This document shows, in pieces, positions 2,770-31,360 of a DNA stretch of 64,000 bases. Numbering within the stretch: position 1 is the stretch's first letter; the number at the start of each line of letters is the position of its first letter. The notes below the pieces were generated by a model. That model was not told where the DNA came from and searched no databases. It saw nothing but the letters and a program-made list of their open reading frames with translations. The translations under genes and the position numbers were made by a program. Source of the stretch: Chloroflexota bacterium (GTDB lineage Bacteria; Chloroflexota; Anaerolineae; UBA1429); NCBI GenBank assembly GCA_034722245.1, contig JAYENT010000026.1, positions 461-64,460 on the forward strand. Direction: 5' to 3'.

Positions 2770-3063
2770 ATGTCGCGATCTTTGAAAAAGGGTCCTTACG
2801 TTTCGGAGAAGCTGCTGGCCAAGATTGAAGAGATGAATCGTCAGGGAGAGAAAAGGGTTGTTCGGACCTGGTCCAGAGCTTCCACCGTGTTTCCTCAGAT
2901 GGTGGGGCACACCATAGCCGTTCATGACGGGCGGCGACATGTGCCCATCTACATCACAGAGGAGATGGTAGGGCATAAGCTGGGCGAGTTTGCGCCCACG
3001 CGTACCTTCCGTGGCCATGGTCGGAAACGCGAGCAGCGGACCACGATTATGGAAATAGTATAG
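2770..3063 (+). CDS. rpsS: 30S ribosomal protein S19
   Basis: [11 protein letters not shown]...[29 protein letters not shown] is canonical S19. Confidence 0.92.
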
Positions 3064-3147: not shown

Positions 3148-3495
3148 ATGGCTTTGGAAGTCAGAGCAGTGAGAAAATACATTCGTATGTCGGCACAAAA
3201 GGTGCGCTTGGTGGTGGATCTGGTGCGCGGGAAGGAAGTGGACGAGGCGTTAGCCATTTTGCAGTTCACACCAAAAGCGGCGGCCAAGGAAGTAGCAAAG
3301 ACGATATCGTCCGCGGTCGCCAATGCCGAAGAGAACTATGGGCTTTCGCGAGACGAACTGTTCGTTTCCCAGATCATGGCCGACGAGGGGCCCACGTTGA
3401 AGCGTGGCAGGGCGGGCGCGCGAGGGCGTTATAAGCCTATACTGAAGCGGAGCACGCACCTCACCGTGGTGTTGGCCGAGAAGGATGAGGGGTAG
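3148..3495 (+). CDS. rplV: 50S ribosomal protein L22
   Basis: MALEVRAVRKYIRMSAQKVRLVVDLVRGKEVDEALAILQFTPKAAAKEV... is canonical L22. Confidence 0.9.
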   Translation: MALEVRAVRKYIRMSAQKVRLVVDLVRGKEVDEALAILQFTPKAAAKEVAKTISSAVANAEENYGLSRDELFVSQIMADEGPTLKRGRAGARGRYKPILKRSTHLTVVLAEKDEG

Positions 3496-3578
3496 TTGAT
3501 TGTGAATTGTTCGTCACTTAAGGCGATGGCTTTGCCCATCTCTATGTGGCAAAGGGGTTATTATAGGTATGGGAGCTT

Positions 3579-3779
3579 ATGAAGGCACAAGAACTTCGTG
3601 AGATGACGCCAGAGGAATTGACCCGGACGCTGGAGGACTTGCAGCGGGAGATGGTGAATCTCCGATTTCAATTGGCAACGCGGCAGTTGGATAATGTGAG
3701 TCGAATGAAGCAGGTGCGGCAGGATATCGCACGGATCAAGACGATTAAGCGCGAGCGAGAGCTCGAAACGGAGGGATAG
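3579..3779 (+). CDS. rpmC: 50S ribosomal protein L29
   Basis: MKAQELREMTPEELTRTLEDLQREMVNLRFQLATRQL... is typical L29; it directly follows rplV with no rpsC/rplP in between. Confidence 0.85.
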   Translation: MKAQELREMTPEELTRTLEDLQREMVNLRFQLATRQLDNVSRMKQVRQDIARIKTIKRERELETEG

Positions 3780-3784
3780 ACGAC

Positions 3785-4033
3785 ATGCCGCGTAGGACAA
3801 TGCGTGGTTACGTGATAAGCGACAAAATGCAAAAGACCGTGATGGTGGAAATCATGAGGACGAAGCGCCATCCCCTCTACAAAAAGGTCTTGCGTACCAC
3901 CAAAAAGTTCATGGCTCATGACGAAGAAGAGGAGTGCAGAGAGGGCGATTTTGTCGAGATCGAAGAATGTCGCCCCCTCAGTCGCCGTAAGCATTGGAGG
4001 GTGACCCAGATTCTGAGGCACGCGGGGACATAG
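3785..4033 (+). CDS. rpsQ: 30S ribosomal protein S17
   Basis: RRTMRGYVISDKMQKTVMVEIMRTKRHPLYKKV... is canonical S17. Confidence 0.9.
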   Translation: MPRRTMRGYVISDKMQKTVMVEIMRTKRHPLYKKVLRTTKKFMAHDEEEECREGDFVEIEECRPLSRRKHWRVTQILRHAGT

Positions 4034-4106: not shown

Positions 4107-4475
4107 ATGATTCAGGCGTATAGCAATTTGAACGTGGCTGACAATACCGGAGCGCGTCGCATCATGTGCCTACGGGTACTAGGGGGATCTGGACGCCGCT
4201 ACGCTGGGGTGGGTGATATTATTGTTGCGTCTGTTAAAGAGGCGGCCCCCGGTGGCTTAGTGAGCAAGAAGGATATCGTACATGCTGTCATCGTGCGTAC
4301 AGCAAAAGGGTATAGCCGCCCGGATGGCTCACACATAAAGTTTGACGATAACGCGGCAGTTATTCTGGACGACGCCACGAACCCCAGGGGAACACGGATA
4401 TTTGGGCCCGTCGCTCGTGAGTTGCGTGAACGTGGTTTCATGCGCATCGTTTCACTTTCACCCGAGGTAGTCTAG
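4107..4475 (+). CDS. rplN: 50S ribosomal protein L14
   Basis: [27 protein letters not shown]... is canonical L14. Confidence 0.92.
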
Positions 4476-4524
4476 AGTCGCTGTTGGCGCACGCAGGTTG
4501 GGCGGTTGTTTCAGGGAGTTGGCT

Positions 4525-4839
4525 ATGAAGATCAAACGGGGGGATACGGTCGAGGTCATAAGTGGTAACGATAGAGGGCTTCGAGGGACAGTGCGGACCG
4601 TTTTCCCAAAAGAGGACAGGGTTATCGTTTCTGGTGTGAATATTGTGCGAAAACACCAGCGACCTACGCAAGATAGATCGGCGCAGGTCGGTATTATCGA
4701 GATGGAAGCTCCTTTGCACGTGTCGAACGTCGCGCTTGTGTGTCCACATTGCAACAGGCCTATGCGAGTGGGCTATGAGGTGTTGGAGGACGGCACCAAG
4801 TCACGCGTTTGCCGCAAGTGCGGCGAGCTTATCGACTAG
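4525..4839 (+). CDS. rplX: 50S ribosomal protein L24 with a C-terminal Cys4 zinc-ribbon-like segment
   Basis: [47 protein letters not shown]... KOW domain of L24; ATG 4525 after AGGGAG SD; the ORF-track start at 4498 is an upstream in-frame extension. Confidence 0.85.
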
Positions 4840-4858
4840 ATTGGCTGGAGATTGGGGC

Positions 4859-5407
4859 ATGGCACCTAGATTGAAAGAACGTTACGAAAACGAAGTTGTG
4901 CCTGGGATGATGGAGCATTTTTCCTATGATAACGTAATGGAGGTGCCCCGCCTGGAGAAAGTCGTCTTGAACGTTGGTCTGGGGGAGGCACTGGAGAACC
5001 CCAGTGCTCTGGAGGCTGCCTCTGAAGACCTGGCCATGATCACAGGACAGCGGCCGGTCATCACTCGGGCGCGCAAGTCATTGGCGGTACATCAGGTCCG
5101 TGCTGGCGATCCCATAGGCATCAAGGTTACGCTTCGTGGCGAGCGGATGTATTCTTTTCTTGACCGACTGATGAATATCGCTTTGCCGCGCCAGCGCGAC
5201 TTTCGAGGCGTCAAGAGGACGGCGTTTGATGGACGCGGTAACTATACTCTGGGATTGAGTGAGCAGGTGATCTTTTTGGAAGTGGATTACGATTCTATCG
5301 ACCGTGTCCGTGGTTTGGAGGTGTGCATCGTAACCACAGCTGAGACGGACGAGGAAGGGCGCTATCTGTTAGGGGCCCTGGGGATGCCCTTTGCCAGGGC
5401 GCGGTAA
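4859..5407 (+). CDS. rplE: 50S ribosomal protein L5
   Basis: [44 protein letters not shown]... is canonical L5; ATG at 4859 (ORF-track start 4643 overlaps rplX in frame). Confidence 0.9.
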
Positions 5408-5483
5408 GGGTGTTTACTGGGGAGTACCAATTGGTCACATGTGACGTGGTCCGTTGATTTGGAAGGTGTGAAGGGGAGTTGTT

Positions 5484-5666
5484 GTGGCAAGGAAATGTCT
5501 GATTGAACGCGAGAAGGATCGCAAATATGAGGTGCGCGAGCATAACCGTTGCGCCATTTGTGGCAGATCGCGCGGATATATGCGCCGATTCGGTATATGC
5601 CGTGTTTGCTTTCGCGAGTTGGCGATGGAAGGAAAGATCCCTGGCGTAGTCAAGGCCAGTTGGTAG
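5484..5666 (+). CDS. rpsZ: 30S ribosomal protein S14, type Z (zinc-binding, 60 aa)
   Basis: [46 protein letters not shown] with CxxC...CxxC; size and position between rplE and rpsH. Confidence 0.85.
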
Positions 5667-5778
5667 AATAGGAGATAATTGGCTTGGACCTGTTACAGAC
5701 GCCGAGTTCATTCACCCTTTGGTCGAGGTCTTAGAGGTGTATGGAAGCCAGGATTGAGATATAGGGAGTTTGTCGCAC

Positions 5779-6177
5779 ATGACCGTAACTGATTCCGTTG
5801 GAGATATGCTGACGCGTATCCGTAATTCGCTGGCCATGGGGTATGATGATGTCATTATACCGTCTTCACGACTGAAGGAGGCCATCGCGCGTGTGCTGCA
5901 GTCGGAGGGGTATATCTATGGCTACGAGGTGGTGCGTGATGGCAGCTACCCGGTATTGAGGGTCCATCTCAAATATACGGAGGATGAGGAGCCGGTTCTC
6001 AGAGGGCTCGAGCGAGTTAGCAAGCCTGGTTGCCGTATTTACACCAAAAAGAAGGACATTCCCTGGGTCAAAGCAGGGCTGGGGAATGTGATATTATCAA
6101 CTCCCCAGGGTGTAATGACGGGTAGAGAGGCGCGTCGCGTTGGAGTAGGGGGAGAGATTCTCTGTAAAGTGTGGTAG
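5779..6177 (+). CDS. rpsH: 30S ribosomal protein S8
   Basis: MTVTDSVGDMLTRIRNSLAMG... is canonical S8; ATG 5779 with GGGAG SD (ORF-track TTG at 5770 abuts the SD). Confidence 0.9.
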   Translation: MTVTDSVGDMLTRIRNSLAMGYDDVIIPSSRLKEAIARVLQSEGYIYGYEVVRDGSYPVLRVHLKYTEDEEPVLRGLERVSKPGCRIYTKKKDIPWVKAGLGNVILSTPQGVMTGREARRVGVGGEILCKVW

Positions 6178-6211
6178 CCGCAGAGAGTGTTGGTAGTAGG
6201 AGGTATGGATT

Positions 6212-6775
6212 GTGTCTAGAATTGGACGCATGCCTGTTCCGGTGCCAGAGGGCGTTTCTGCCAGTATGACGGGCAATGTTGTGACGATAGATGGTCCCCG
6301 TGGAAAACTTATAAAAGAGTTTCATCCCAATATGACCATTCATTTGGAGGATGATACCATTACCGTCTCGCGACCCAATGATAGTCGTGTGAACAGAGAG
6401 TTGCACGGTTTAACGCGCGCCCTACTGGCCAATATGGTTGAGGGCGTGACAGAAGGGTTCGAGAAGCGACTTGTGATCAACGGAGTGGGGTATCGGGCGG
6501 AGAAGGACGGCGAGGCCATCGTTTTGCAGGTGGGCTTCAGTCACCCTGTAAGGGTTGAGCCGCCCGAGGGCATAACCTTTACCGTAGAGAATCGGGGACA
6601 GCTCATCATCGTGGGAGGCAGCGACAAAGAACTGGTTGGGCAGGTCGCGGCCCAGATACGTGCTGTGCGGAAACCCGAACCCTACAAAGGCAAAGGCATC
6701 GCTTATGAGGATGAGAGAATTCGACGCAAGGCTGGCAAGGCTGGCAGAGTCGGATTGGGAGTTGGAGGCGTATAA
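6212..6775 (+). CDS. rplF: 50S ribosomal protein L6
   Basis: [32 protein letters not shown]... is canonical L6; GTG start after AGGAGG. Confidence 0.9.
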
Positions 6776-7134
6776 TGGCTGATGCTCTTCAGGCACGGAA
6801 GCGTCGGCACCGTCGAGTACGTAGCCAGGTCGTTGGCACAACAGAGAGGCCGCGCCTGAACGTTTTCCGGAGTCTACGTCATATCTATGCTCAGATCATC
6901 GACGATTCTATCGGTCATACGCTGGTTTCTTCTTCGACAGTGGATAAAGAGATCAGGGATGAATGTGCAGAATTGTCCAAGACCGAGGCGGCCCGGATGG
7001 TAGGCGAGACGCTGGCTGAGCGGGCCTTGGATCGGGGTATCACCACCGTTGTCTTTGACCGTGGTGGCTATAGATATCATGGGCGTGTACGGGCGCTTGC
7101 TGAGGCCGCTCGTGAGGGAGGGCTGGATTTCTAG
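6775..7134 (+). CDS. rplR: 50S ribosomal protein L18
   Basis: [36 protein letters not shown]...[26 protein letters not shown]; start overlaps rplF stop (TAATG). Confidence 0.9.
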
Positions 7135-7192
7135 ATGATGCGAGACTATTCTGCGCGGCGGGGAACCGCAAGGGTGGTAGGCGGGGAGATGC

Positions 7193-7723
7193 ATGATGGC
7201 TGATAGGGACGAACGGGATAGAGAGCAGGAGCTGGACGAACGCGTTGTGAGTATCGCTCGTGTCTCCAACGTGGTAAAGGGCGGACGTCGTTTCAGCTTC
7301 CGAGCCCTTACAGTGGTTGGGGACAGAAGTGGACGCGTCGGAGTGGGTGTGGGGAAGGCGCGAGAGGTCCCGGCTGCAATACGCAAGAGTTTTGATCGCG
7401 CGCGAAAAAACATGGTTTCCGTTTCTCTGAGTGATGACCGGACATTGCCCCACGAACTGACGGTCGAGTATGGGGCGGCCAAGGTATTCATGAAACCGGC
7501 CTCTCCCGGAACGGGCATCATCGCTGGCGGCGGGGCACGCGCTGTTCTGGAGGCCGCTGGCGTGAAGGACGTGCTGTCCAAATCTTTGGGGAGCGACAAT
7601 ATTGTCAACGTGGTAAGGGCGACGTTCAAGGGTTTGACGGAGGTCATGGATCTGGAGTCGCGGGCGAGAGCGCGTGGCAAGTCGGTGGAGGATCTCCTTC
7701 CGCCGTGGAAGGTGGCAGGGTAA
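7193..7723 (+). CDS. rpsE: 30S ribosomal protein S5
   Basis: [49 protein letters not shown]... is canonical S5. Confidence 0.9.
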
Positions 7724-7724
7724 G

Positions 7725-7913
7725 ATGGCGGCTAAGCTCCGAATGAAATACGTCAAGAGTGCTATCGGTTACAGCAAAAAGCAGAAAGAGACGATACGGG
7801 CCTTGGGATTTCGTCATCTGAACGAGACGGTGGAGCGGGACGATAACGCCGTTATCCGAGGGATGGTGAACAAGGTACGGCATCTATTAGAGGTGGAAGA
7901 GATAGAGTCATGA
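7725..7913 (+). CDS. rpmD: 50S ribosomal protein L30
   Basis: [60 protein letters not shown] is L30; ATG 7725 chosen over the longer ORF-track extension. Confidence 0.8.
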
Positions 7914-8365
7914 AGTTGCATGAGCTGAAACAACCTGAGGGAGCCAAGCGTTCTGGCAAACGCCGTGGTCGCGGTATAGCGGCTGGCCAAGGAAAGACGG
8001 GCGGCTATGGCACCAAGGGGCAGAATGCGCGCTCCGGCCGGGGCGGCAAACCCTATTTCGAGGGTGGCCAGTTGCCCCTGGTCAGACGATTGCCCATCAA
8101 GCGGGGATTCAGGAATGTGAACCGCGTCGAGTATGAGGTGGTGAACGTATGGGCTCTGAATCGGTTTGAGGATGGCAGCACGGTCGATCTCAATGCCCTG
8201 TGCGAGGCCGGGTTGGTGAAAAAGGGTGATCGCCCTCTCAAGATTCTTGGAGACGGGGAGCTTGATCGCGAGCTGATAGTTTTAGCAGATGCCTTTTCCG
8301 AGACGGCGAGGGAAAAGATCGAGGCTGCCGGCGGCAGTGCCGAGACCACAGGGACTTTCGCCTAG
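7910..8365 (+). CDS. rplO: 50S ribosomal protein L15
   Basis: [57 protein letters not shown] is canonical L15; start overlaps rpmD stop. Confidence 0.9.
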
Positions 8366-8403
8366 AGGGATCGTCGCGCGAATGATGCAGACGGAGGGGA
8401 TTG

Positions 8404-9708
8404 ATGCTCCAAGCGGTTGCTAACGCTTTCAAGGTTCCGGATCTGCGAAAACGCATATTGTTTACGTTGCTGATACTCGTGATCTATCGATTTGCCGCCC
8501 ACGTTCCCCTTCCGGGGGTGGATGTAGAGGCTCTTAGGCAAGTCTTTCAGCAGAATCAACTGCTGGGCCTACTGGACATGTTTTCCGGCGGGGCTATGTC
8601 CAACTTTTCTGTGATGGCCATGGGAGTCTATCCGTTTATCACCGCACAGATCGTTTTGCAGTTGCTGACGCCGATCATTCCCATGCTCGATGCGTTGAGT
8701 CAGGAGGGAGCTGCTGGGCGACAGAGAATCAATATGTATACGCACTTGGTTACCATTCCCCTGGCTATGCTGCAGGGGTTCGGTCAGGCATCGCTCTTGG
8801 CGCGGTCGACGGGGGCGGCGGGCCCCGTTATTCGGAACTTTGGCTTTGGACCTGGTACGTGGCTTTCCACGCTGGCGACACTGCTGACTTTGACGGGCGG
8901 GACCATGTTTGCCATTTGGCTTGGAGAGCTGATTGATGAACAAGGCATCGGCAACGGTCTTTCCATCATCATCTTTGGTGGCATTGTGGCAGGGATTCCA
9001 CAGCGTTTGGCCCAGATGTGGGTGTCTAACCCCTGGGCTATCGTTGTTTTCGCCTTTATCACCGCGGTTACCGTGGTGGGTATCGTGTTTGTGCACGAGG
9101 GGCAGCGGCGCATACCGGTGCGCTATGCCAGGCGTGTCCGCGGTAATAAGGTATATGGGGGACAGAGCACACATATTCCCCTGCAGGTTAATTCGGCAGG
9201 CATGATTCCCTTGATATTTGCCGTCTCCATCGTTATGCTGCCGGGCGTGATATCCAGCTATTTTGTGAATTCCAACGTGGAGGTGGTGCGGAATATAGCA
9301 GTAACTGTGTCTGGGCTCTTTGATTCCACCAGCGCGTTCTATTGGATTCTCTATTTCTTGCTGGTTGTAGGTTTCACTTATTTCTATACGGATATCATAT
9401 TTCAACAGCAGGATCTAGCAGGCACCTTGAAACGGCAGGGAGGCTTTATTCCCGGAATTCGGCCTGGCGCGCGTACGAGGGAGTATCTTAACAGTGTGGT
9501 TACGCGCATCACCCTGGTGGGTGCTCTTTTCTTGGGGATCGTAGCCATTTTGCCGTTTCTTGTGCGCCCTATTGCTGGAACGAGCCAGATGTTGGTAACG
9601 AGTACAGGGCTGTTGATTGTGGTTGGGGTGGTGCTAGATACGATGAAGCAGTTGGAGTCCCAACTGATGATGCGGCATTATGAAGGATTCATACGGAAGA
9701 TGAGATAA
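8404..9708 (+). CDS. secY: Preprotein translocase subunit SecY
   Basis: 10-TM protein with MLQAVANAFKVPDLRKRILFTLLILVIYRFAAHVPLPGVD...; position after rplO. Confidence 0.92.
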   Translation: MLQAVANAFKVPDLRKRILFTLLILVIYRFAAHVPLPGVDVEALRQVFQQNQLLGLLDMFSGGAMSNFSVMAMGVYPFITAQIVLQLLTPIIPMLDALSQEGAAGRQRINMYTHLVTIPLAMLQGFGQASLLARSTGAAGPVIRNFGFGPGTWLSTLATLLTLTGGTMFAIWLGELIDEQGIGNGLSIIIFGGIVAGIPQRLAQMWVSNPWAIVVFAFITAVTVVGIVFVHEGQRRIPVRYARRVRGNKVYGGQSTHIPLQVNSAGMIPLIFAVSIVMLPGVISSYFVNSNVEVVRNIAVTVSGLFDSTSAFYWILYFLLVVGFTYFYTDIIFQQQDLAGTLKRQGGFIPGIRPGARTREYLNSVVTRITLVGALFLGIVAILPFLVRPIAGTSQMLVTSTGLLIVVGVVLDTMKQLESQLMMRHYEGFIRKMR

Positions 9709-10376
9709 TGGAGATGGCCATCGATTTGGTATTGTTGGGTCCCCCGGGTGCGGGCAAGGGAACCCAGGCAGAGTTGTTGAGCGATTGGCTTGATATACCT
9801 GCTGTGTCCACCGGTGATCTGTTTAGAAAGGCGATGGCTGAATCCACGGAGTTGGGAGTGCAGGCCAAGGGCTATATCGAGCGGGGGGATTTGGTGCCTG
9901 ATGAGGTGACTGTTGGTATGGTGCGGGAGCGCCTGACAAATTCCGACTGTGACGAGGGGGTGATCCTGGATGGATTCCCTCGCACTGTGCCCCAGGCAGA
10001 TGCTTTGGAAGCGTTGCTGGTAGACATGGGGCGTCGGCTCGATGCGGCACTCTACATTGAGGTCTCACGGGACGAGTTGCTGCGAAGGCTGGGAGAGCGC
10101 TGGACCTGCCGCGAGTGCGGTGAGGTGTATCATGAGATTTACGACCCTCCTGAGCAAGAAGGGGTGTGTGATAAGTGCGGGGGCGAACTTTATCAGCGCT
10201 CCGACGACACCCCAGAGGCACAGGAGCAGCGTGTCAAGGTCTATCTAGAACAGACGGCCCCTTTGTACGATTATTACGCGGAAGATGGGCTGCTCATCGA
10301 AATAGACGGGGAGCAGGAGATTGATGCTGTTCAACAGGAGATCAGAGAGGCGATTTCCAGATTGAAGGGAGATTGA
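9708..10376 (+). CDS. adk: Adenylate kinase with zinc-binding LID
   Basis: LLGPPGAGKGTQAELL P-loop; LID has CRECGEVY...CDKCG Cys4; overlaps secY stop by 1 nt. Confidence 0.9.
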   Translation: MEMAIDLVLLGPPGAGKGTQAELLSDWLDIPAVSTGDLFRKAMAESTELGVQAKGYIERGDLVPDEVTVGMVRERLTNSDCDEGVILDGFPRTVPQADALEALLVDMGRRLDAALYIEVSRDELLRRLGERWTCRECGEVYHEIYDPPEQEGVCDKCGGELYQRSDDTPEAQEQRVKVYLEQTAPLYDYYAEDGLLIEIDGEQEIDAVQQEIREAISRLKGD

Positions 10377-10434
10377 GGAAATAGGGTAGTTTACCATTTC
10401 CTTTGGTTAGTGATATTTTGTAGAGGTTGAGAAA

Positions 10435-10548
10435 ATGAAAGTTTCTTCATCTGTCAAGAAGCGTTGCGAAAAATGCAAAATCGTACGGCGTCATGGTGTT
10501 GTGTACGTGATCTGTGATAATCCCAAGCATAAACAGCGTCAGGGCTAG
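10435..10548 (+). CDS. rpmJ: 50S ribosomal protein L36 (37 aa, zinc-binding form)
   Basis: Hand-translated: [37 protein letters not shown]; not in the ORF track (under 60 aa); GAGAAA-ATG context. Confidence 0.85.
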
Positions 10549-10592
10549 CGCTGACGCTGTGCAGGCAGAGAATGATTTGAGGGAGGGAAGGT

Positions 10593-10979
10593 ATGGCGCG
10601 TATCGCGGGAGTTGATATTCCCAATGACAAGCAAGTAGAGATTGGCTTGACACACATTTACGGCGTTGGACGTACGCGAAGCCAGCAGATTCTAGCGAAT
10701 GCTGGCATCGATCCGCGGACAAAGGGCAAGGATCTGACCGAGTCAGAAATCGCGCGGCTACGTGAGGTCATCGATCGGAACTATAAGGTGGAAGGTGAAC
10801 TTCGCCGTGAGGTGCAGACGAACATCAAGCGCTTGATCGATATTGGTTCCTATCGTGGATTGCGCCATCGTCGGGGGTTGCCTGTGCGTGGTCAGCGTAC
10901 ACGGACGAATGCTCGGACGCGGAAAGGGCATGAGCGAAAAACAGTCGCGGGCAGAAGGCCTTCTCGCGAAAAGACGTAA
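10593..10979 (+). CDS. rpsM: 30S ribosomal protein S13
   Basis: [34 protein letters not shown]... is canonical S13. Confidence 0.92.
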
Positions 10980-10997
10980 TAGTCATCGGAGGTTGGA

Positions 10998-11390
10998 ATG
11001 GGACGAGGAAGAGGTGGGCGGTCTCGTAGCCGCCGCGTGAGACGAAATGTGCCACGAGGGCGCGCGTATATCAAGTCCACATTCAATAATACTATAATCA
11101 CCTTCACGGATGCGGATGGAGATGTGGTTTGTTGGCACAGCGCGGGGCAGGATTTTCGCGGTTCGCGTAAGAGCACGCCGTTTGCCGCCCAGATAGCCGC
11201 AGAGAACGCAAGTAACAAGGCTATGGATATGGGGATGCGTGAGGTCGATGTGTATATCAAGGGGCCCGGCCCCGGGCGAGAGGCCGCGGTGCGTCAGATT
11301 CAGGCAGCCGGGTTGCGCGTGTTAAGCATAACGGACGTGACTCCGGTCCCCCATAATGGGTGTCGCCCGCCCAAAAAGCGCCGAATCTAG
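10998..11390 (+). CDS. rpsK: 30S ribosomal protein S11
   Basis: [44 protein letters not shown]... is canonical S11. Confidence 0.92.
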
Positions 11391-11486
11391 CGTTTGATGG
11401 GGATTGCTAAAGAGCATAACAGTTCCATGATAGGGAACTGTTGAAATATTTTGTAACAGGAAGTGATAGAGGATTTGGGAGGTTAG

Positions 11487-12119
11487 ATGGGAAGACGTAG
11501 GGAGCCCTCTTGCAAGCTGTGTCGTCGTGAGGGCAGGAAGCTCTTTTTGAAGGGAGAGCGCTGCTTTTCAGATAAATGCGCTATGGAGCGACGGGGTCAT
11601 CCGCCAGGTGCGCATGGCCGACAGAGCCGCTTCCAAAGAGAGTCCGACTATGGAGAGCAGCTTCGCCAGAAGCAGGCCGCAAAGCGGGTTTACGGTGTTC
11701 GCGAAAAGCAATTCCGTCGTTACTATGAACTGGCGGAACGTGTTCGTGGTCGTACAGGAGCCGCTCTGCTGGGCATCCTGGAGCGACGCATGGATAACGT
11801 TGTGTATCGCTTGGGATTTGCGGACTCGCGTGCGCAAGCGCGTCAGTTGGTGGTTCATGGCCACTTTGACCTAAACGAGCGAAGGATGAATGTCCCCTCG
11901 GCTTTGGTGGAAGTGGGGGATGAAATCCGTGTACGCGAATCTAGCAGGAACAACGGGTATTTCAATGGCCTGATCAAGATTCTCGAACATCGCACTGTTC
12001 CCGAATGGTTGAGCCTTGACGCTACTAATATGAGCGGTACAGTTTTGAACTTGCCGACGCGCGAACAGATCGACACACCGATCGAGGAACAGCTCATCGT
12101 GGAGTACTATTCACGATAG
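11487..12119 (+). CDS. rpsD: 30S ribosomal protein S4 (zinc-finger form)
   Basis: CKLCRREGRKLFLKGERCFSDKC N-terminal Zn motif; VYGVREKQFRRYYELAE...; S4 domain. Confidence 0.9.
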   Translation: MGRRREPSCKLCRREGRKLFLKGERCFSDKCAMERRGHPPGAHGRQSRFQRESDYGEQLRQKQAAKRVYGVREKQFRRYYELAERVRGRTGAALLGILERRMDNVVYRLGFADSRAQARQLVVHGHFDLNERRMNVPSALVEVGDEIRVRESSRNNGYFNGLIKILEHRTVPEWLSLDATNMSGTVLNLPTREQIDTPIEEQLIVEYYSR

Positions 12120-12190
12120 CGATGTACTACTGTATATTGAACAGTGTGTCATAGACATGTGGTGTGTTTGCTGGTCTATGATATCGAACA

Positions 12191-13159
12191 GTGAGGAGGG
12201 TACCTTTGTTGGATCGAGTACTCCCCAAAATCGAAGTTGAAGCGAGTACGCGCGACTATGGGCATTATGTGATAGGCCCCATGGAGCGCGGATACGGCAC
12301 GACCCTGGGGATCGCTATGCGGCGGGTTCTACTCTCCTCGCTGCCTGGGGCGGCTATAACCTCAGTGCAGGTGACGGGAGTGCCCCACGAATTTATGACT
12401 ATTCCCGATGCCAGAGAGGATATGACCGAGCTCCTGCTTAACTTGAAGCGGGTGCGAGTGGTCTCCTATTCGGAGGAGCCAGCGCGCATGCGCGTAGTGG
12501 CAAGAGGGAAAAGTCTGATTACGGCCGGGGATATAGAGGCCCCCGCGGATGTGGAGATCGTCAACCCTGAGTTCCGCCTGCTGACGCTGGACACGCTGGA
12601 CTCGGAACTCGAGATGGAGCTGACCGTTGAGCGGGGGGTGGGATATTCGCCGGCAGAGGAACGCGAATCCGCGTCGATCGGAGAAATTCCCATTGACGCC
12701 GTTTTTAGCCCCGTCGTTAGGGTGAAGCATGCAATAGAGCGGACGCGTATTGAGCAGGTCACGAACTATGACCTCCTCGACTTGGAGATATGGACGGATG
12801 GAACGATGCGTCCGGCGGAGGCCATGGCAACTGCGGCTAGTATTCTGGTACAGCATCTTTCTCTCTTGGCCGAGTTCGAGGAAACCGAGATGATCCTGCA
12901 AACGGAGAGCGGGCGAGGGGAGTCCGAAATGTCGGCGTTTTACGACGTGGATATAGAGGAACTGGAGCTCACGGTCCGTGCGTTCAATTGCCTGAAGCGA
13001 GCGGGCATCGATACCGTGGGCGAGGTTCGAGAGCGCCTGGAAGATGGCAGGGACGAGATGCTGGCCATTCGTAACTTTGGGATCAAGTCGTTGGCCCAAG
13101 TGGTGGAGAAGATGAAGTTGAAGGGGTTTCTTCCACAGGATTTCGACTTTGAGGACTAG
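12191..13159 (+). CDS. rpoA: DNA-directed RNA polymerase alpha subunit
   Basis: YGHYVIGPMERGYGTTLGIAMRRVLLSSLPGAAITSVQVTGVPHEF... N-terminal domain plus C-terminal alpha-CTD; true start may be TTG at 12215 just after a GGAGG SD. Confidence 0.9.
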   Translation: MRRVPLLDRVLPKIEVEASTRDYGHYVIGPMERGYGTTLGIAMRRVLLSSLPGAAITSVQVTGVPHEFMTIPDAREDMTELLLNLKRVRVVSYSEEPARMRVVARGKSLITAGDIEAPADVEIVNPEFRLLTLDTLDSELEMELTVERGVGYSPAEERESASIGEIPIDAVFSPVVRVKHAIERTRIEQVTNYDLLDLEIWTDGTMRPAEAMATAASILVQHLSLLAEFEETEMILQTESGRGESEMSAFYDVDIEELELTVRAFNCLKRAGIDTVGEVRERLEDGRDEMLAIRNFGIKSLAQVVEKMKLKGFLPQDFDFED

Positions 13160-13243
13160 TTTCGCTCTTGCCCCCGTGATATGACGCAGGGGTTGCTGTG
13201 CTCTCTGGGGAGATGATAAGTATTATGAGAGAGGTAGTTTGAA

Positions 13244-13624
13244 ATGAGACACCGAGTAGCAGGGCGGCATCTTGGTCGAAACTCGGCCCACCGCACCGCT
13301 CTTTTCCGAAACTTGATGCGCGAACTGTTTCGCCATGAGCGCATAAGGACGACGAAGGCAAAGGCATCCGCAATACGCTCCGACGCTGAGCATCTCATAA
13401 CGCTTGCCAAGCGGGGCAATGCCCGAGCGGGTGAGGGCGAGGGGGGGGTACATGAGCGGAGGAGGGTGTCCTCCATACTTCAAGACGAGGAGGTGGCGAG
13501 AAAGTTGTTTGAGGAAATCGCCCCCAGATTTGTTGATCGCCATGGCGGATATACGCGGACATTGAAGTTGGGCGGGCGAAAGGGTGATGGTGCCGAGATG
13601 GTCATCATGGAGTTGGTCGAGTAA
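13244..13624 (+). CDS. rplQ: 50S ribosomal protein L17
   Basis: MRHRVAGRHLGRNSAHRTALFRNLMRELFRHERIRTTKAKA... is canonical L17. Confidence 0.9.
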   Translation: MRHRVAGRHLGRNSAHRTALFRNLMRELFRHERIRTTKAKASAIRSDAEHLITLAKRGNARAGEGEGGVHERRRVSSILQDEEVARKLFEEIAPRFVDRHGGYTRTLKLGGRKGDGAEMVIMELVE

Positions 13625-23911: not shown

Positions 23912-26900
23912 ATGGCTCCTATGACAGGAGAGGATAAGTTCGTGACGTGGCAAGATGCGTCGCACGCTGTAAAGACAGTGTGGTCTCGACTTGGCAACCT
24001 GTCCTCCGACCGCCGTATGATGCTCAACTTGATGATAGTGATTCTTTTGATTGCAGGCGCGTTGCGTTTTACGGGGATAGATTGGGACGAGAATCAGCAC
24101 CTTCATCCCGACGAGCGCTTCTTGACCATGGTCGAGGACAGATTGCGATGGCCCAGTTCCTTCAAAGAGTATCTGGACTCCTCTGTGAACCCCCTCAGCC
24201 CCTACAATCAGGGTCACGACTACTATACCTATGGTTTGCTCCCCGTGGTTGTGACCAAGTTCATTGGTGAGATCGTGGGCGAGACGGGTTATGATAGCAT
24301 CTATCTCGTGGGGCGGGCGCTGAACGGCGTGCTTGACCTGTTTTCCATCGTGTTGATCTTTATCATGGGCAAGCGTCTCTATGACGCCCGTGTAGGGCTT
24401 TTGGGGGCCTTGTTTCTCGCTTTCAGCGTGCTTAACATTCAGAGCGCTCACTATTTCACCGTAGATACGTGGGTCACCTTTTTTGTAACCTTGGCCCTTT
24501 TCTATGCAATTCGCGTGGCCCAGGGGGAGGGATGGGGGAGTGTTCTAGCCATGGCTGTGGCTTTCGGCCTGGCCACGGCTTCCAAGATCAGCGTTCTCCC
24601 CTTTTTGCTTGTCATGGGTTTGGCCTACACGTTGAGGATCTGGAGACGATGGCAGGCTCACAGAGGTGGGGACTCCTCGCGTTTGATCCATCTGAGAAAG
24701 CAGTGGGGACGGTTTAATATCTTGCTTCGAGTTGAACCGGATGACGAGTGTGAGCCGGTGACGGATGGCGAGCGCCTGTTTTTCGAAATCCTTCGGGGGA
24801 CGCTTTCTTTCTTGGTGGCATTGGTCGTAGCCGCCCTTGTCTTCCGCGTGGCGCAACCTCACGCCTTCACGGGGCCCGGGCTGTTCAATTTCAAGCTCAA
24901 TCCCACATGGAAAGACGACATGAGTCATATCAGCAAGCTGACGAGCGGAGAGATCACTTGGCCCCCTAGTTACCAATGGACGGGCCGGACGCCGGTCCTT
25001 TTCATGCTCAAGAATATGGTATTTTGGGGATTGGGGTTGCCGTTGGGCATCGCGGCATGGGTCAGCTGGGCGTTTATAGGCTGGGAGATGTACAAGAAGG
25101 AGAAGCTGACCCATCTCCTCCCTTGGATGTGGATGACCTTTATCTTCCTCTATCACAGCACCCAGCACGTCAAGACCATGCGTTACCTGCTTCCCATCTA
25201 TCCCACGGCGGCCATGGTGGCCGCCTATGGTCTGATCAAGCTGTGGGATGGGGCCAGGGCATGGAGGGTGCATTATGGTCCGGAGAGGCGTCGGATACGC
25301 TGGGCGGTCGGCGTCCTGATTCTCGTCGTGGTGCTGGGTACGGCCTTTTGGGCCGTCGCCTTTACCAGCATCTATACGCGGCCGGTGACCCGCGTGGCGG
25401 CCTCGCGCTGGATGTACCGCAATCTTCCCCGGGGCGCCTCGGTATCCTATGAGGTGTGGGATGATCCTTTGCCTCTGAATATAGACGGACGTCTGGCGAG
25501 TTCCTACTTTGATCAGGTAAAAATGGATCTCTATGCGGAGGATACACCTGAAAAGCGGGAAAAGCTCTACGACTGGATAGAGAGAGCGGACTATATCGTT
25601 CTTTCGAGCAACCGCCTTTATAAGTCGATTCCTCGTCTTCCCATGCGCTATCCCATGACCACGCGGTACTATGAGGCCCTTTTCTCTGGGGAGCTTGGTT
25701 TTGAGCGTACAGCCACCTTTACCTCACGGCCAAAGCTGTTCGGAATTGAGATCGTCGACGACAATGCGGAGGAGGCCTTTACCGTATACGATCATCCCAA
25801 GGTGATCATCTTTAGGAAGCGCGCCGACTTTTCCATGGTCAGGGTGCGAAGGCTCTTTGAGGAGTATTCCCTTGATCGCATTGTGCGCATGAAACCCACG
25901 CAGGTGACGTCTGCGCCTAATGCTTTGATGCTCAGCGAAGAGGAATGGGCCGTACAACGCGCTGGCGGGACCTGGTCGACGATCTTTTCCCGGAACAGCC
26001 TGTCGAACAAGTTCCCGACGGTAACATGGCTTTTGGCCCTCTTTTATGTGGGATTTGCCGCCTTCCCCTTGGCCTTTGTGGCTTTTTGGCGCATGCGCGA
26101 TCGAGGGTATCTGCTCTCCAAAACCGTGGGCTTGTTAGTTATGAGCTACCTTGCCTGGCTCTTGCCCAGTTTGAAGGTGCTGCCTTATAGCCGAGGGCTC
26201 ATCGCTGGCGTGCTGTTGGGAGTGAGCGCCCTCTCTGCTGTGGTGGGATGGGTGCAAAGGCGCCCTCTACTGGACTTTGTGCGGCGACGCTGGCGTCTCC
26301 TCATAGTCGGTGAACTGCTGTTTCTGGCCTTCTTTTTCCTTTTCTGGCTTATACGCTTTCTCAACCCCGATCTCTGGCATCCGGTCATGGGCGGAGAGAA
26401 GCCCATGGATATGGCCTATCTCAACGCCATCATCAAGAGTACCCACTTTCCACCCTATGATCCCTGGTTCGCCGGCGGCTATATCAACTACTACTACTTT
26501 GGCTGGGTCGTGGCGGCCACGCTGATCAAGCTGACGGCCATCGTCCCCTCGGTGGCCTACAACCTGGCTATTCCCACGTTCTTTGCTCTCATGGCCATGG
26601 GCTCTACGTCCGTTGTCTTTAACCTGATACCCGCCGGAGAGGACGAGGATGGCTGGTTTCCCAGGGCGTTGGGTTATGGGCTCGTGGGCGCTTTGTTGGT
26701 GGCTGTGGCGGGCAACCTGGGCGAATTGCAACTCCTGTGGAATGGCTTCAAGGAACTGGGCAGTAGGGTTTCCTTTGAGAGCACCATTCCCGGGCTTGTG
26801 ACTCTGGTGCAGGTGGTTCGTGGGCTCTGGGCTTGGGTCGCGCAAGGCGAAAGGTTGCCCTTTCGCAGCGAGTGGTGGTATTGGAACGCCAGTCGCATCA

Positions 26901-29900
26901 TGAAGCACGGGGAGATCAACGAATTTCCTTTCTTTAGCTTTTTGTACGCCGACCTGCACGCCCATCTGACGGCCATGCCCTTTGCCATTTGCGCCTTGGC
27001 CCTGGCCAGCAACTTTGTCGTTGAGCCCGTGCGGTGCCTGTTCGGCCCGGCTGACGATGAGGAAGAAGGGGATAAGAGCGAGGGGACGCACGCCGAGGAT
27101 GTAGAGGGAATCCCTGTAGAAACGCGCGCACCTTTCTTGCCGGGCGTGGTACGCTCTGTGCTGCACTTCTTGCAGGGCCTGTCGTCGTGCATCCACTGGC
27201 CTATGATCGCTTCCCTGACCCTGCTCGCGCTGATCCTTGGGGAACTGTGGTGCAACAACTCTTGGGATTTCCCCACCTATGCTGGCGTGTCCGTGGTGGC
27301 CTTGGCCATAGGTTCGTATGCTGAGGCTGACAGGATCAACAAGAAGGTGGTGGCGCACTTCGCTCTTCGCGTCGCCTGCGTGCTGGCACTGAGCATGCTT
27401 TTCTTCCTGCCCTACCACGCCAACTATGGCCTGGCCTATTCCAGCGTGGATCTGTGGAAGGGGGAGCGTACGTCCATCGGCTCTTATCTTATCATTCATG
27501 GGACATTTCTTTTTATACTCGCCTCGTATCTTTTGGTGCTCCTTTTCGACAGGAGGCGCCGGAATGGAATCGTGCGTGCAATACGGCTGTTTCTTCAAGC
27601 CTGGGAGCGGCGAAGGCGTGCGCTGCATCTTTACGACCTCCTCGTGCGTTGCCCAAAGCTGGGCTACGAGCTGGGATGGCTGGGATTGGTTGTCTTGGGG
27701 ATCGTACTGCTTATATTCTTCCTAAAGCAGGCGTGGATCCTGTTGCTGGCGGCGCCTATACTCGCCTTGGCCCTGAGTGTCGTCCTCTTTACCCGAGTGC
27801 GGGCGGAGCGGCGTTTCCAGGCTGCCCTTGTGGGGATCGGACTGCTGTTGACCTTGGCTGTGGAGTATATCGTGCTAAAGGGCGACATTGGCCGTATGAA
27901 CACTGTGTTCAAGTTCTCCTTACAGGTCTGGATCATGTGGGGGGTGGTGGGGGGCGCAGCGTTGGCTTATCTGATCCCCCGCCATTGGGCCTGGCCGTCG
28001 CGCGTGCGTTCCGTATGGCGCAAAATGCTCATCTTTCTTCTCATTGGCGTTTCCCTCTATCCTCTGTGTGGTACCTATGGAAAGGTGAGAGATCGCTGGA
28101 ACCCCGATCTGCCACCGGGATTGGACGGCATGCGCTTTATGACGGGGGCACACTACCGGGATAATAATCGCGATTTGGCTCTGGAATATGATTATCGTGC
28201 CATCCGATGGATGCAGGAGCATATCAAGGGTTCGCCCGTCATCGCCGAGGCCAACACCCCCCTTTACCGCTGGGGGAGCCGCGTGTCCGTCTATACGGGG
28301 CTGCCGACCATCGTGGGTTGGGACTGGCATCAGAAGCAGCAGCGCGCTGCGGTCGGTAGTCAGGTGGTGGACTGGCGACTGGAGGATTTGCGGCTGCTCT
28401 ACAATACGCCCGATCCCGTGATGGCCGCTAACATTCTTGAGTGCTACCAGGTGGGCTACATCTATGTAGGCGAATTGGAGAAGGCCTATTACGACACGCA
28501 AGGTCTGGCCAAGTTCGGACGCATGGTTGGGTCCACGTTGGAGGTCGCTTATAGGCAGGGACCGGTGACCATCTATCGCGTCAAGGGATCGGGCGCTGGA
28601 TTGGTATCCTCAGATCCTGGAGGAGAAAGTCTCTGGAACACCGCGAAACGCTGGTTTGCCAAGCGCTGGTTGCCGGGTGTGGTGAGGGCCGAGGAGCCCC
28701 AGAAGCGTCCTCTTGGCGGGCTGCAGGCGATGGTGGGAGAGCCCTCGCTGATGTTGGACAAACCCGTTGATCAGTTGCCGGTGGTCGATGATCGAGGCTG
28801 GAATGGTCTGGCTGCGAACAGGACGATCTTTGCCCTGTTCTCGTGGTGGGTCGTGTTGCAGCTCCTTGGTTTGATCGCTCTCCCCCTGGTGGGGTATGCC
28901 TTTTCCCCTCTGCCGGACGGGGGGTATTATCTGAGCAAAGGGATCGGGCTGTTGCTCGTCAGCTATCTTGTGTGGCTTGGAACCAGCCTGCACGTGGTTG
29001 CCAACCGCCCTCATGTGGCCTGGGCCGCTTTGCTGTCGGCGGGAGGATGCTCTTTTTTTCTGTGGTGGCGCCACCGCCGTCGTCTGCGCAGGGCGTGGCG
29101 CCGACAACGGAGATTGATTCTGGTGGAGGAGGGCCTATTTAGCATCGCTTTTCTGCTCTTCGTCGGCCTGCGTCTCCTCAATCCGGATCTTTGGCAGCCC
29201 TGGTTCGGCGGGGAAAAGATGATGGAGATAGCTTTCCTAAACGCCATCTGTAAATCCGCCCACATGCCGCCGTATGATCCCTATTTCGCTGACGGGTACA
29301 TCAACTACTACTATTATGGGCAATTCATCGTCGCCACGTTGATCAAGCTCACGGGGGTGTTTCCTCGGGTGGCTTTCAATCTGGCCGTGCCCACCTTCTT
29401 TGGGCTGACCGTCTCCCATGTCTTTGGCGTCTCCTATGGTCTCGTAGCTTTGGGTGAGGAAGGGGTGGAAGAGACTGGAAGAGCAGAAGACGACGCTGGA
29501 ACTGCTGGCATTGCTCCTCGTGCCAGTCCCATCTCCTCCAGGGGGCTGTGGGCAGGGATAGGGGCAGTGGTGCTGGTGGCCGTCATGGGCAACCTCTCTG
29601 GCATACTCCAGGTGCTGGAGTGGCTTGCGAGGGCGGGCGGGGCCTCCTTTCCGGAGGGTCACGTCGCCTGGGCGGATATCCCGTACATTATTCCGGGGCT
29701 GGTGCACACGATACGTCAGGGGATCCCATTGCATTTCGAATACTGGTACTATGGCACGCGCATCATCCCCCACACCATCAACGAGTTTCCCTTTTTTACC
29801 TTTCTCTTTGCCGATCTGCATCCTCATCTGATGGGCATTCCCTTCACTATACTTGTCGTGGGGCTGGCTGCCTCTTTGCTGTGGAGCAAAAGGCGTCCTT

Positions 29901-31360
29901 TAGGGCGCTCTGTCGTGGGCGGGATTCTGACCATCATCGCTCTGGGCGCTCTGGGAGTGATCAATACGTGGGATCTGCCCGCCTATGCGGCGCTTCTGGG
30001 GTGTGTATTGCTCTATTGTGGCTATATATACGGAGGATGGCGAGGAGCGTTGGCCGGCGGGGGCGCTTTCTCGGTCCTTTTTTTGCTTTCTTTGATCGCC
30101 TACGGGCCCTTCTACACCCACTATCGGGCCCAGTATGTGGGCTTGGGGATCGTCTCTCCGGGTGAGCGCACGCGCCTGGGGCCGTTTATGCTTATTTGGG
30201 GCTTTTACGTTTTTTTAACCATCTCTATGGCCTTTTTTTGGACGGGGCGGGCCTGGCCGTGGTCCCGTCTTGCCGCCTTGGTGCAAAGGCATGGACTGGC
30301 CCGCGTCATGCATCACCTTTGGACTTTACGAAGGGCAGGGACCGTGGCCTGGAGCATCTATTCTCTGTCGGTTGCGGCGTTGATGGCCGTGGGCATCTTT
30401 CTTGTCCTATCCGAGGTATGGCTATGGGCACTGCTTGTTCCCCTCGCAGGGTTAACGGGGCTGGCCGTCCTCTGCAGTGGGATGGATCGAGCCGCCTTTT
30501 TTCGGCGCCTGATGGCACTTGGGGCTTTTTGCATCCTCTGGTTGGTGGAAGTCTTTTACATGAAGGATTTCCTGGCCAGCTCCGAGTGGCGACGTATGAA
30601 TACCATCTTCAAGTTCTACATCCAGGCCTGGGTGTTGCTCGGTTTGGCTGTGGGCGGCACTTTGCCCATACTATGGGATAGGCTGAGGGGACACCTGGGC
30701 GCTGTGTGGAAGGGCGCCTTTCTCTTGGGGCTGTTCGCGTCTCTAGTGTACACGGCGTTGGCGATTCCCGCGCGGGTGACGCAGCGGTTTCTCGACGCCC
30801 AGCCGCCGACGGGCACCCTCGATGGCACGTCCTACATGAAGACGGCGGTCTACTCCTGGCCGGATGAGGAAGACGAGATCCACCTCAAGTACGACCGTCA
30901 GGCCATCGCCTGGCTCTGGGAGAATGTGCGGGGTACGCCAGTGCTCGCCGAGGCGCCGCTGGGATATTATCGAGAAGGGGGGCTGCGAGTCTGTTCCTAC
31001 ACCGGCTTGCCAATGATCATCGGCGCCCATGAGAATGAGCAGCGCCCCTGGGAGCAGTTGGGCTCGCGCCAGGAAGATGCGGAGGCCATTTTTCGAAGCA
31101 CGGATGTCGAGAGGGTGCAGGATCTCCTGGACAAGTATCGCGTGCGCTACATTTACGTGGGGCAACTGGAGCGCAACGCCTATGATGCGGCGGGGTTGGC
31201 CAAATTCGATGTCCTGGTAGATCAAGGGGCCATCACGCGCGTGTTCCACAACGCGGGAGTCGATATTTACAGAGTCGTGGAGGACAGGCTGTCTAAGAGA
31301 ACCGGGGCCCCATATTCGGAGATAGTTGTAAGGAGTTTTGGTCTGTGCTGCAGGTCCTGA
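23912..31360 (+). CDS. Giant (2482 aa) integral membrane protein: N-terminal GT-C-like module plus two tandem Chlor_Arch_YYY (DUF2298/TIGR03662) modules
   Basis: Single uninterrupted ORF; N-terminus HLHPDERFLTMVED...YEVWDDPLPLNIDGRL paralogous to the 18506 gene; two copies of PDLW(H/Q)P(V/W)(M/F)GGEK(P/M)M(D/E)(M/I)A(Y/F)LNAI(I/C)KS(T/A)H(F/M)PPYDP(W/Y)FA(G/D)GYINYYY(F/Y)G with YYYxG motif; each followed by conserved periplasmic tail GLP(T/M)I(V/I)G...YIYVG(E/Q)LE. Confidence 0.75.
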   Translation: MAPMTGEDKFVTWQDASHAVKTVWSRLGNLSSDRRMMLNLMIVILLIAGALRFTGIDWDENQHLHPDERFLTMVEDRLRWPSSFKEYLDSSVNPLSPYNQGHDYYTYGLLPVVVTKFIGEIVGETGYDSIYLVGRALNGVLDLFSIVLIFIMGKRLYDARVGLLGALFLAFSVLNIQSAHYFTVDTWVTFFVTLALFYAIRVAQGEGWGSVLAMAVAFGLATASKISVLPFLLVMGLAYTLRIWRRWQAHRGGDSSRLIHLRKQWGRFNILLRVEPDDECEPVTDGERLFFEILRGTLSFLVALVVAALVFRVAQPHAFTGPGLFNFKLNPTWKDDMSHISKLTSGEITWPPSYQWTGRTPVLFMLKNMVFWGLGLPLGIAAWVSWAFIGWEMYKKEKLTHLLPWMWMTFIFLYHSTQHVKTMRYLLPIYPTAAMVAAYGLIKLWDGARAWRVHYGPERRRIRWAVGVLILVVVLGTAFWAVAFTSIYTRPVTRVAASRWMYRNLPRGASVSYEVWDDPLPLNIDGRLASSYFDQVKMDLYAEDTPEKREKLYDWIERADYIVLSSNRLYKSIPRLPMRYPMTTRYYEALFSGELGFERTATFTSRPKLFGIEIVDDNAEEAFTVYDHPKVIIFRKRADFSMVRVRRLFEEYSLDRIVRMKPTQVTSAPNALMLSEEEWAVQRAGGTWSTIFSRNSLSNKFPTVTWLLALFYVGFAAFPLAFVAFWRMRDRGYLLSKTVGLLVMSYLAWLLPSLKVLPYSRGLIAGVLLGVSALSAVVGWVQRRPLLDFVRRRWRLLIVGELLFLAFFFLFWLIRFLNPDLWHPVMGGEKPMDMAYLNAIIKSTHFPPYDPWFAGGYINYYYFGWVVAATLIKLTAIVPSVAYNLAIPTFFALMAMGSTSVVFNLIPAGEDEDGWFPRALGYGLVGALLVAVAGNLGELQLLWNGFKELGSRVSFESTIPGLVTLVQVVRGLWAWVAQGERLPFRSEWWYWNASRIMKHGEINEFPFFSFLYADLHAHLTAMPFAICALALASNFVVEPVRCLFGPADDEEEGDKSEGTHAEDVEGIPVETRAPFLPGVVRSVLHFLQGLSSCIHWPMIASLTLLALILGELWCNNSWDFPTYAGVSVVALAIGSYAEADRINKKVVAHFALRVACVLALSMLFFLPYHANYGLAYSSVDLWKGERTSIGSYLIIHGTFLFILASYLLVLLFDRRRRNGIVRAIRLFLQAWERRRRALHLYDLLVRCPKLGYELGWLGLVVLGIVLLIFFLKQAWILLLAAPILALALSVVLFTRVRAERRFQAALVGIGLLLTLAVEYIVLKGDIGRMNTVFKFSLQVWIMWGVVGGAALAYLIPRHWAWPSRVRSVWRKMLIFLLIGVSLYPLCGTYGKVRDRWNPDLPPGLDGMRFMTGAHYRDNNRDLALEYDYRAIRWMQEHIKGSPVIAEANTPLYRWGSRVSVYTGLPTIVGWDWHQKQQRAAVGSQVVDWRLEDLRLLYNTPDPVMAANILECYQVGYIYVGELEKAYYDTQGLAKFGRMVGSTLEVAYRQGPVTIYRVKGSGAGLVSSDPGGESLWNTAKRWFAKRWLPGVVRAEEPQKRPLGGLQAMVGEPSLMLDKPVDQLPVVDDRGWNGLAANRTIFALFSWWVVLQLLGLIALPLVGYAFSPLPDGGYYLSKGIGLLLVSYLVWLGTSLHVVANRPHVAWAALLSAGGCSFFLWWRHRRRLRRAWRRQRRLILVEEGLFSIAFLLFVGLRLLNPDLWQPWFGGEKMMEIAFLNAICKSAHMPPYDPYFADGYINYYYYGQFIVATLIKLTGVFPRVAFNLAVPTFFGLTVSHVFGVSYGLVALGEEGVEETGRAEDDAGTAGIAPRASPISSRGLWAGIGAVVLVAVMGNLSGILQVLEWLARAGGASFPEGHVAWADIPYIIPGLVHTIRQGIPLHFEYWYYGTRIIPHTINEFPFFTFLFADLHPHLMGIPFTILVVGLAASLLWSKRRPLGRSVVGGILTIIALGALGVINTWDLPAYAALLGCVLLYCGYIYGGWRGALAGGGAFSVLFLLSLIAYGPFYTHYRAQYVGLGIVSPGERTRLGPFMLIWGFYVFLTISMAFFWTGRAWPWSRLAALVQRHGLARVMHHLWTLRRAGTVAWSIYSLSVAALMAVGIFLVLSEVWLWALLVPLAGLTGLAVLCSGMDRAAFFRRLMALGAFCILWLVEVFYMKDFLASSEWRRMNTIFKFYIQAWVLLGLAVGGTLPILWDRLRGHLGAVWKGAFLLGLFASLVYTALAIPARVTQRFLDAQPPTGTLDGTSYMKTAVYSWPDEEDEIHLKYDRQAIAWLWENVRGTPVLAEAPLGYYREGGLRVCSYTGLPMIIGAHENEQRPWEQLGSRQEDAEAIFRSTDVERVQDLLDKYRVRYIYVGQLERNAYDAAGLAKFDVLVDQGAITRVFHNAGVDIYRVVEDRLSKRTGAPYSEIVVRSFGLCCRS

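Follow-up and report, generated by a model that had tools for sequence, protein, structure and literature searches.

No gene arrangement in prokaryotes is better conserved than the S10-spc-alpha cluster, and the run rplV-rpsC-rplP-rpmC is among its stablest stretches. In the window, by which the whole 64-kb stretch of DNA analysed here is meant, rplV is followed directly by rpmC, and the genes for the ribosomal proteins S3 (rpsC) and L16 (rplP) are not found between them. The question raised by this locus is whether the junction belongs to the organism or to the assembly and, if to the organism, how it arose and where S3 and L16 are encoded.

The absence of rpsC and rplP between the end of rplV at 3495 and the start of rpmC at 3579, as given in the preliminary description of the sequence, was confirmed from the open reading frames, by direct reading of the sequence, and by Pfam, tblastn and HMM searches. 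The S10 part of the cluster includes the following features, some of them identified by comparison to the contigs L002, L003 and L175 of close relatives:

6-53, + strand: rpsJ (S10), of which the window includes the 3' end; tblastn match to residues 87-102 of E. coli S10
157-819, + strand: rplC; ORF translation, 87-95% identity to the genes of L002, L003 and L175
871-1500, + strand: rplD; ORF translation, 87-95% identity to the same three contigs
1565-1852, + strand: rplW; ORF translation, 87-95% identity to the same three contigs
1894-2733, + strand: rplB; ORF translation, 87-95% identity to the same three contigs
2770-3063, + strand: rpsS (S19); Pfam PF00203, E = 2e-37, full length
3148-3495, + strand: rplV (L22), 115 aa, intact, the final gene ahead of the junction; Pfam PF00237, E = 4e-38, profile positions 1-103 of 104
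3496-3578, no strand: non-coding spacer of 83 nt in the place of rpsC-rplP; direct sequence reading
3579-3779, + strand: rpmC (L29), 66 aa, intact, the opening gene past the junction; Pfam PF00831, E = 2e-22, profile positions 1-57 of 57
3785-4033, + strand: rpsQ (S17); Pfam PF00366, E = 3e-32

The order rplC, rplD, rplW, rplB (157-2733) is that of the canonical proximal S10 operon, and the counterparts of these genes in L002, L003 and L175 were assigned to the Pfam families Ribosomal_L3, L4, L23 and L2. The rplV gene is closed by a TAG stop codon at 3493-3495, and the C-terminus of its product (...VVLAEKDEG) aligns to that of the relative L004 (...VVLAEKEA). On the other side of the junction, L29 begins with MKAQELREMT in the window and with MKAQELRDLS in L004. 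As S19, L22, L29 and S17 were all recovered as full-length Pfam domains, the flanking genes are intact and there is no truncation at the junction. The rpsC-rplP span of relatives, in comparison to the 83 nt of the window, covers approximately 1.1 kb.

The spc and alpha operons follow complete and in canonical order on the + strand (4107-13624). Their genes were read as ORFs, the Pfam assignments being based on the identical Logan contig L001 and the collinear contig L175, and L36 was located by tblastn:

4107-4475, + strand: rplN
4525-4839, + strand: rplX
4859-5407, + strand: rplE
5484-5666, + strand: rpsN (short form)
5770-6177, + strand: rpsH
6212-6775, + strand: rplF
6775-7134, + strand: rplR
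7193-7723, + strand: rpsE
about 7725-7913, + strand: rpmD
7910-8365, + strand: rplO
8401-9708, + strand: secY
9708-10376, + strand: adk
10435-10548, + strand: rpmJ (L36)
10593-10979, + strand: rpsM
10998-11390, + strand: rpsK
11487-12119, + strand: rpsD
12191-13159, + strand: rpoA
13244-13624, + strand: rplQ

The first 13.6 kb of the window consists of one + strand ribosomal-protein cluster reaching from rpsJ to rplQ. Nine of the 11 genes of the canonical S10 operon are present in the same order and on the same strand, rpmC and rpsQ lead into the spc operon (rplN and onwards) as in the canonical organisation, and the complete spc and alpha operons come thereafter. In L002, L003 and L175, tuf is situated upstream and rpsJ is complete. 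The canonical operon has rpsC and rplP between rplV and rpmC, whereas the members of the clade formed by the window and these closest relatives have a spacer of 76-89 nt. The MAG contigs of the clade all stop within or at tuf, immediately ahead of rpsJ (L002:1-445; L003:1-433; L175:1-1203), probably because tuf is duplicated and the repeat broke the assemblies, and sequence upstream of the S10 operon was seen in the clade as far as tuf.

The further statement that the cluster is otherwise canonical was essentially right. In the window adk is directly followed by rpmJ and rpsM (9708-10979) with neither map nor infA present, and this absence is common in the class. The order adk-rpmJ without map and infA was found in 17 of 60 Chloroflexota loci and the order adk-map-rpmJ-rpsM in the other 43, and the absence was rejected as a second clade-specific change, being an ordinary variant. 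The S14 protein encoded by rpsN (5484-5666) is short, 60 aa, and its cysteine pattern suggests the zinc-binding type.

Neither S3 nor L16 was detected at any other position of the 64-kb window. The tblastn searches produced chance matches only with the E. coli proteins (best E = 0.075) and no match at E ≤ 1e-4 with S3 and L16 of Anaerolineae, and the best E value was 0.7 when HMMs built from 169 S3 and 138 L16 sequences were run with the --max option on six-frame ORFs of at least 25 aa. Likewise, neither protein was found in the 14-15 kb loci of the relatives.

The L22 sequences nearest to that of the window are from uncultured Chloroflexota labelled as Anaerolineae or Anaerolineales. When the Chloroflexota were scanned with the window L22 as the query, including one genome per species and annotating the loci by tblastn, 77 of the 80 loci had S3 and L16 right after L22, two were without them, and one was uninformative, as its contig ends too early. 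The rarity attributed to the missing rpsC and rplP was thus upheld in this sample. The two loci passing directly from L22 to L29 represent the closest relatives of the window: L002 (CAZMOW010000041), with an L22 93% identical to that of the window, and L003 (JAWLEV010000054), with an L22 89% identical. A further contig, L175 (JAWOEC010000074, assembly GCA_046482965.1), has rplV and then rpmC within the same gene order from tuf through rplQ. It shares 99.9% identity with L003 over 13.9 kb, and at this level of sequence identity the two are one species recovered as two deposited MAGs.

In a separate Logan assembly, that of run SRR26901925, the junction matches the window in every base (100% identity). 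Also the NCBI L22 entry MEA3407008.1 (P0002), on a contig of 79.7 kb, is 99% identical to the window L22 over 113 aa, and it probably represents the same gene with its start called two codons downstream. The loci looked up individually in addition (L082-L088, L173 and L178) all have the canonical order L22-S3-L16-L29, and an L22 at 81% identity to that of the window belongs to a canonical operon of a different organism. The nearest relatives retaining S3-L16, L034 and L004, are approximately 73-74% identical to the window in their ribosomal proteins.

The comparison with close relatives, which had been suggested as a means of recognising a lineage trait, showed the same junction in L002, L003 and L175. 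The gene order of the window is followed collinearly by L002 and L003 for 13.5 kb, with approximately 82% nucleotide identity; they are approximately 90% identical to it over 16 ribosomal proteins, and their mutual nucleotide identity is 87%. With nucleotide identities of approximately 82-87% and ribosomal-protein identities of approximately 90%, the junction is present in at least three species. Approximately 76% of the nucleotide differences in 11 genes of the cluster are at third codon positions, and this bias indicates strong purifying selection on the cluster, unlike what a duplicate in decay would show.

The spacer measures 83 nt in the window, 89 nt in L002 and 76 nt in both L003 and L175. 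The spacers can be aligned, the first ca. 15 nt past the rplV stop and the last ca. 35 nt ahead of the rpmC start being conserved and the middle part being rich in indels across the clade. Independent assemblies of diverged relatives thus share the junction and a recognisably homologous spacer that has changed since, as is expected of an inherited trait. Since the spacers are homologous and yet have diverged by substitutions and indels, they point to one ancestral event, and since L034 and L004 retain S3-L16, the excision can be dated to the stem of the small clade. Judged from these sequence comparisons, the junction is a structural variant of the S10 operon that has been inherited vertically within a small group of uncultured Anaerolineales (Chloroflexota).

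All members of the clade have a conserved GGGAG motif resembling a Shine-Dalgarno sequence 5-6 nt before the ATG of rpmC. The rpmC gene of the clade has a leader and a ribosome-binding site of its own, whereas in canonical relatives its start overlaps the stop of rplP, as was seen in six of them. The overlap implies translational coupling in those relatives, and the translation of L29 appears to have changed in the clade from coupled initiation to independent initiation at its own GGGAG site. No promoter or terminator was found in the spacer in a scan for sigma-70-type promoters and canonical intrinsic terminators. As the spacer is without such signals, transcription most likely runs from rplV into rpmC, and the operon would still be co-transcribed.

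Two other roles of the spacer were considered and rejected. As a regulatory element it has little to offer: no Rfam family was matched, the scan for promoters and terminators was negative, shuffled sequence is predicted to fold just as stably (z-score 0.01), and a small hairpin in the window spacer is not conserved in L002 or L003. A remnant of the S3 or L16 genes was not recognised either, as the blastn-short matches were at chance level. These included a match of 12 nt, GGCAAAGGG, to the part of the L16 gene of one relative that codes for MGKGKG (E = 0.03), and the global alignment of the spacer to the 3' ends of the L16 genes of the relatives was no better than that of shuffled sequences.

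The reading that joins these results, to which we assign a probability of roughly 0.88, is that of an inherited operon variant which originated in a single excision of rpsC-rplP, is still transcribed across the junction, and is accompanied by S3 and L16 genes kept elsewhere in the genome. In an ancestor common to at least three species, the neighbouring genes rpsC and rplP would have been removed in one event from between rplV and rpmC, leaving a short spacer, now 76-89 nt, while the other genes from rpsJ to rplQ would have stayed together as one cluster on the same strand. A second copy of rpsC-rplP would have come first, arising through segmental duplication or being acquired from a close relative, and the copy within the operon would have been deleted thereafter.

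Events of this kind have been described from other bacteria. Brandis 2021 counted 163 alteration events in the ribosomal operon cluster (PMC8046335), among them cases in which essential genes were deleted, for example rplJL in Haemophilus influenzae Rd or secY in Bacilli. The essential genes deleted from the cluster always had a copy elsewhere in the genome, and the route proposed was a duplication or a transfer from a close relative followed by the loss of the copy within the cluster (PMC8046335). By analogy with those taxa, duplication followed by deletion is most likely the route also here. In the cases of Brandis 2021, one or two adjacent essential genes are gone and the order and concatenation of the remaining genes are intact. 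The window clade shows the same pattern, the cluster being collinear in three species and having no promoter or terminator signal at the junction. The genes (here rpsC-rplP) and the phylum (here Chloroflexota) are different from those of the published cases, and the second copy was located in complete genomes in those cases, whereas we infer it for the window clade. No prior report of a displacement of the rpsC-rplP pair was found in a literature search that was not exhaustive.

With regard to the present location of the two genes, the preliminary description had considered a relocation within the genome as a rare rearrangement. This stands to the extent that the junction is common to close relatives; the relocated copies themselves did not appear in the searches, and the six S3 candidates that were read proved canonical. 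S3 and L16 are universal and essential core components of the ribosome, and on account of this essentiality functional copies of both are probably present elsewhere in the genomes of the clade. The S3 of the clade was searched for with the S3 of L004 as the query, and the 120 best matches listed were clustered, those on contigs with the length of an L22 contig were set aside, and the others were ranked as candidates by correlated identity profiles and by their fit to the expected profile. Six of these candidates were read (P0125, P0160, P0162, P0205, P0173 and P0223), and all were from canonical operons of other organisms. According to a calibration of S3 identity against the identity of 16 proteins, the clade S3 is expected at approximately 73-76% identity to the query, which corresponds to the tail of the list. 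No S3 entry matched the accession series MEA34..., MFO79... or MGM04..., most of the entries being without an accession.

In another, much larger lineage of the Anaerolineae rpsC was found apart from the S10 operon. In a metagenome scan with an S3 alignment, for which the 80 loci listed are a sample, two loci (L094 and L095) have S3 without a nearby L22 or L16. The S3 family to which these two belong is large, with 78% identity or higher in at least 120 clusters. In all eight loci read (L094, L095, L169-L172, L176 and L177), which comprise three NCBI MAGs, two metagenome contigs and three Logan contigs, S3 is directly downstream of a cold-shock-domain gene and carD. The NCBI MAGs with carD-linked rpsC are JBUDPG01, CAYPOY01 and DAOUDT01. 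The solitary rpsC and the genes following it in JBUDPG01 were located as follows:

L094:5946-6617: solitary rpsC
L095:887-1558: solitary rpsC
L169:1420-2091: solitary rpsC
L176:7013-7684: solitary rpsC
L177:1141-1812: solitary rpsC
L169:2257-6464 (JBUDPG010000114.1): region with rpsL (S12) at 4380-4811 and rpmJ (L36) at 4915-5037, followed by rpoD

In JBUDPG01, S3 precedes a pentapeptide-repeat gene and an S1-domain gene, after which come rpsL, rpmJ and rpoD. As rpsL normally heads the str operon, rpsL and rpmJ of JBUDPG01 may form a secondary cluster of translation genes or be second copies. The carD-rpsC lineage is of the same class as the window clade, and its S3 is likewise away from any L22 or L16 gene; by affinity it is a different lineage, however, and S3 was seen there alone, with no L16. 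As an independent precedent, this lineage, known from its solitary-rpsC loci alone, shows that rpsC can reside outside the S10 operon in Anaerolineae. It also suggests that the displacement of rpsC has taken place more than once in the class.

By analogy with the carD-rpsC locus, for which the model order is a cold-shock-domain gene, carD, rpsC, (rpsL), rpmJ and rpoD, S3 and L16 of the window clade might be under separate control in a secondary neighbourhood of translation and transcription genes. This extension of the main reading is rather unlikely. If it were true, the synthesis of S3 and L16 would be uncoupled from the S10 operon and might follow growth-rate or stress regulation, and the Anaerolineae would be repeatedly dismantling the most conserved operon in bacteria.

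It is also conceivable, but improbable, that S3, possibly together with L16, was acquired from another source such as the carD-linked type in a xenologous or paralogous replacement, after which the genes within the operon were redundant and were deleted. The large S3 family with lone members behind a cold-shock-domain gene and carD, with rpsL and rpmJ nearby in one genome, is compatible with such an origin, and deletion after the gain of a second copy is a documented route (PMC8046335). The carD-linked S3 is, however, 68-70% identical to the S3 of the group of L029, L009 and L026 and only 63% to that of L034 and L004, while the window clade has the opposite affinity in 16 ribosomal proteins, being on the side of L034 and L004. 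Furthermore, JBUDPG01, CAYPOY01 and DAOUDT01 are not assemblies of the clade, another member of the family (MDY7077410.1) is outside the accession series of the window-like L22 entry MEA3407008.1, and no L16 accompanies the carD-linked S3. Because of its affinity to a different Anaerolineae group and because the assemblies are not those of the clade, the carD-linked S3 was rejected as the S3 of the clade in the main reading.

Nor is it at all probable that the cluster of the window is a partial second copy and that a complete canonical S10 operon is present elsewhere in the same genomes. In three species the cluster genes are all intact and evolve under strong purifying selection, and the L22 search did not reveal a second canonical L22 near the clade. 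Among the L22 matches at 88-100% identity, all the contigs read (L001, L002, L003 and L175) have the junction, P0003-P0005 (92-96%) being matches with contigs unread, and the next L22 examined in its context, at 81%, is that of the different, canonical organism mentioned above. It would also be unusual for more than 25 duplicated ribosomal genes to be kept across speciation.

The suspicion that about 1.1 kb had been lost or misassembled was refuted, as three diverged species, assembled independently, all have the L22-L29 junction. An assembly artefact, in which the 1.1 kb of rpsC-rplP was collapsed or skipped and the genes are truly between rplV and rpmC, is accordingly a very slight chance. 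All members of the clade are metagenome-assembled genomes, strain mixtures can break assemblies at conserved ribosomal operons, and L002, L003 and L175 do break at tuf. Such an error would, however, need to have been repeated in the window and a separate Logan contig as well as in two further species from unrelated data sets and in a second MAG, whereas S3-L16 was recovered normally in the assemblies of all other relatives. Moreover, an artefact would not evolve into homologous spacers diverged by substitutions and indels. That the clade would make its ribosomes without S3 and L16 is next to impossible: the only point in its favour is that the genes are missing in the 64-kb window and in the relatives' loci of 14-15 kb, while both proteins belong to the universally conserved core of the ribosome, purifying selection acts normally on the other translation genes of the cluster, the ribosomal-protein losses reported in reduced lineages are of peripheral proteins, and a free-living bacterium without S3 and L16 is not known.

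As an inherited excision with S3 and L16 kept elsewhere, the junction would be a Chloroflexota example of duplication followed by deletion, of which cases are known in Gammaproteobacteria and Bacilli. The clean, inherited removal of two essential genes would mean that even the most conserved core of the cluster can be edited. The mechanism is conventional, involving no new principle and opening no long-standing question, and the case is mildly surprising with respect to the evolution of gene order. The junction may be of use as a simple synapomorphy of the clade. S3 and L16 also belong to the set of 16 syntenic ribosomal proteins on which concatenated trees are widely based, and they are common single-copy markers for the completeness of MAGs. 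In this clade they are absent from the ribosomal contig and may be missed if they are on short, unbinned contigs, in which case the alignments would be shorter and the completeness estimates of the MAGs of the clade lower.

Beyond the ribosomal-protein cluster, the window includes some long ORFs. An ORF of 2482 aa (23912-31360) has a DUF2298 membrane-protein domain (E = 1e-221) and is followed by a second DUF2298 ORF of 800 aa (31345-33747). An ORF of 1026 aa (35679-38759) combines PMT_2 glycosyltransferase and NHL-repeat domains.
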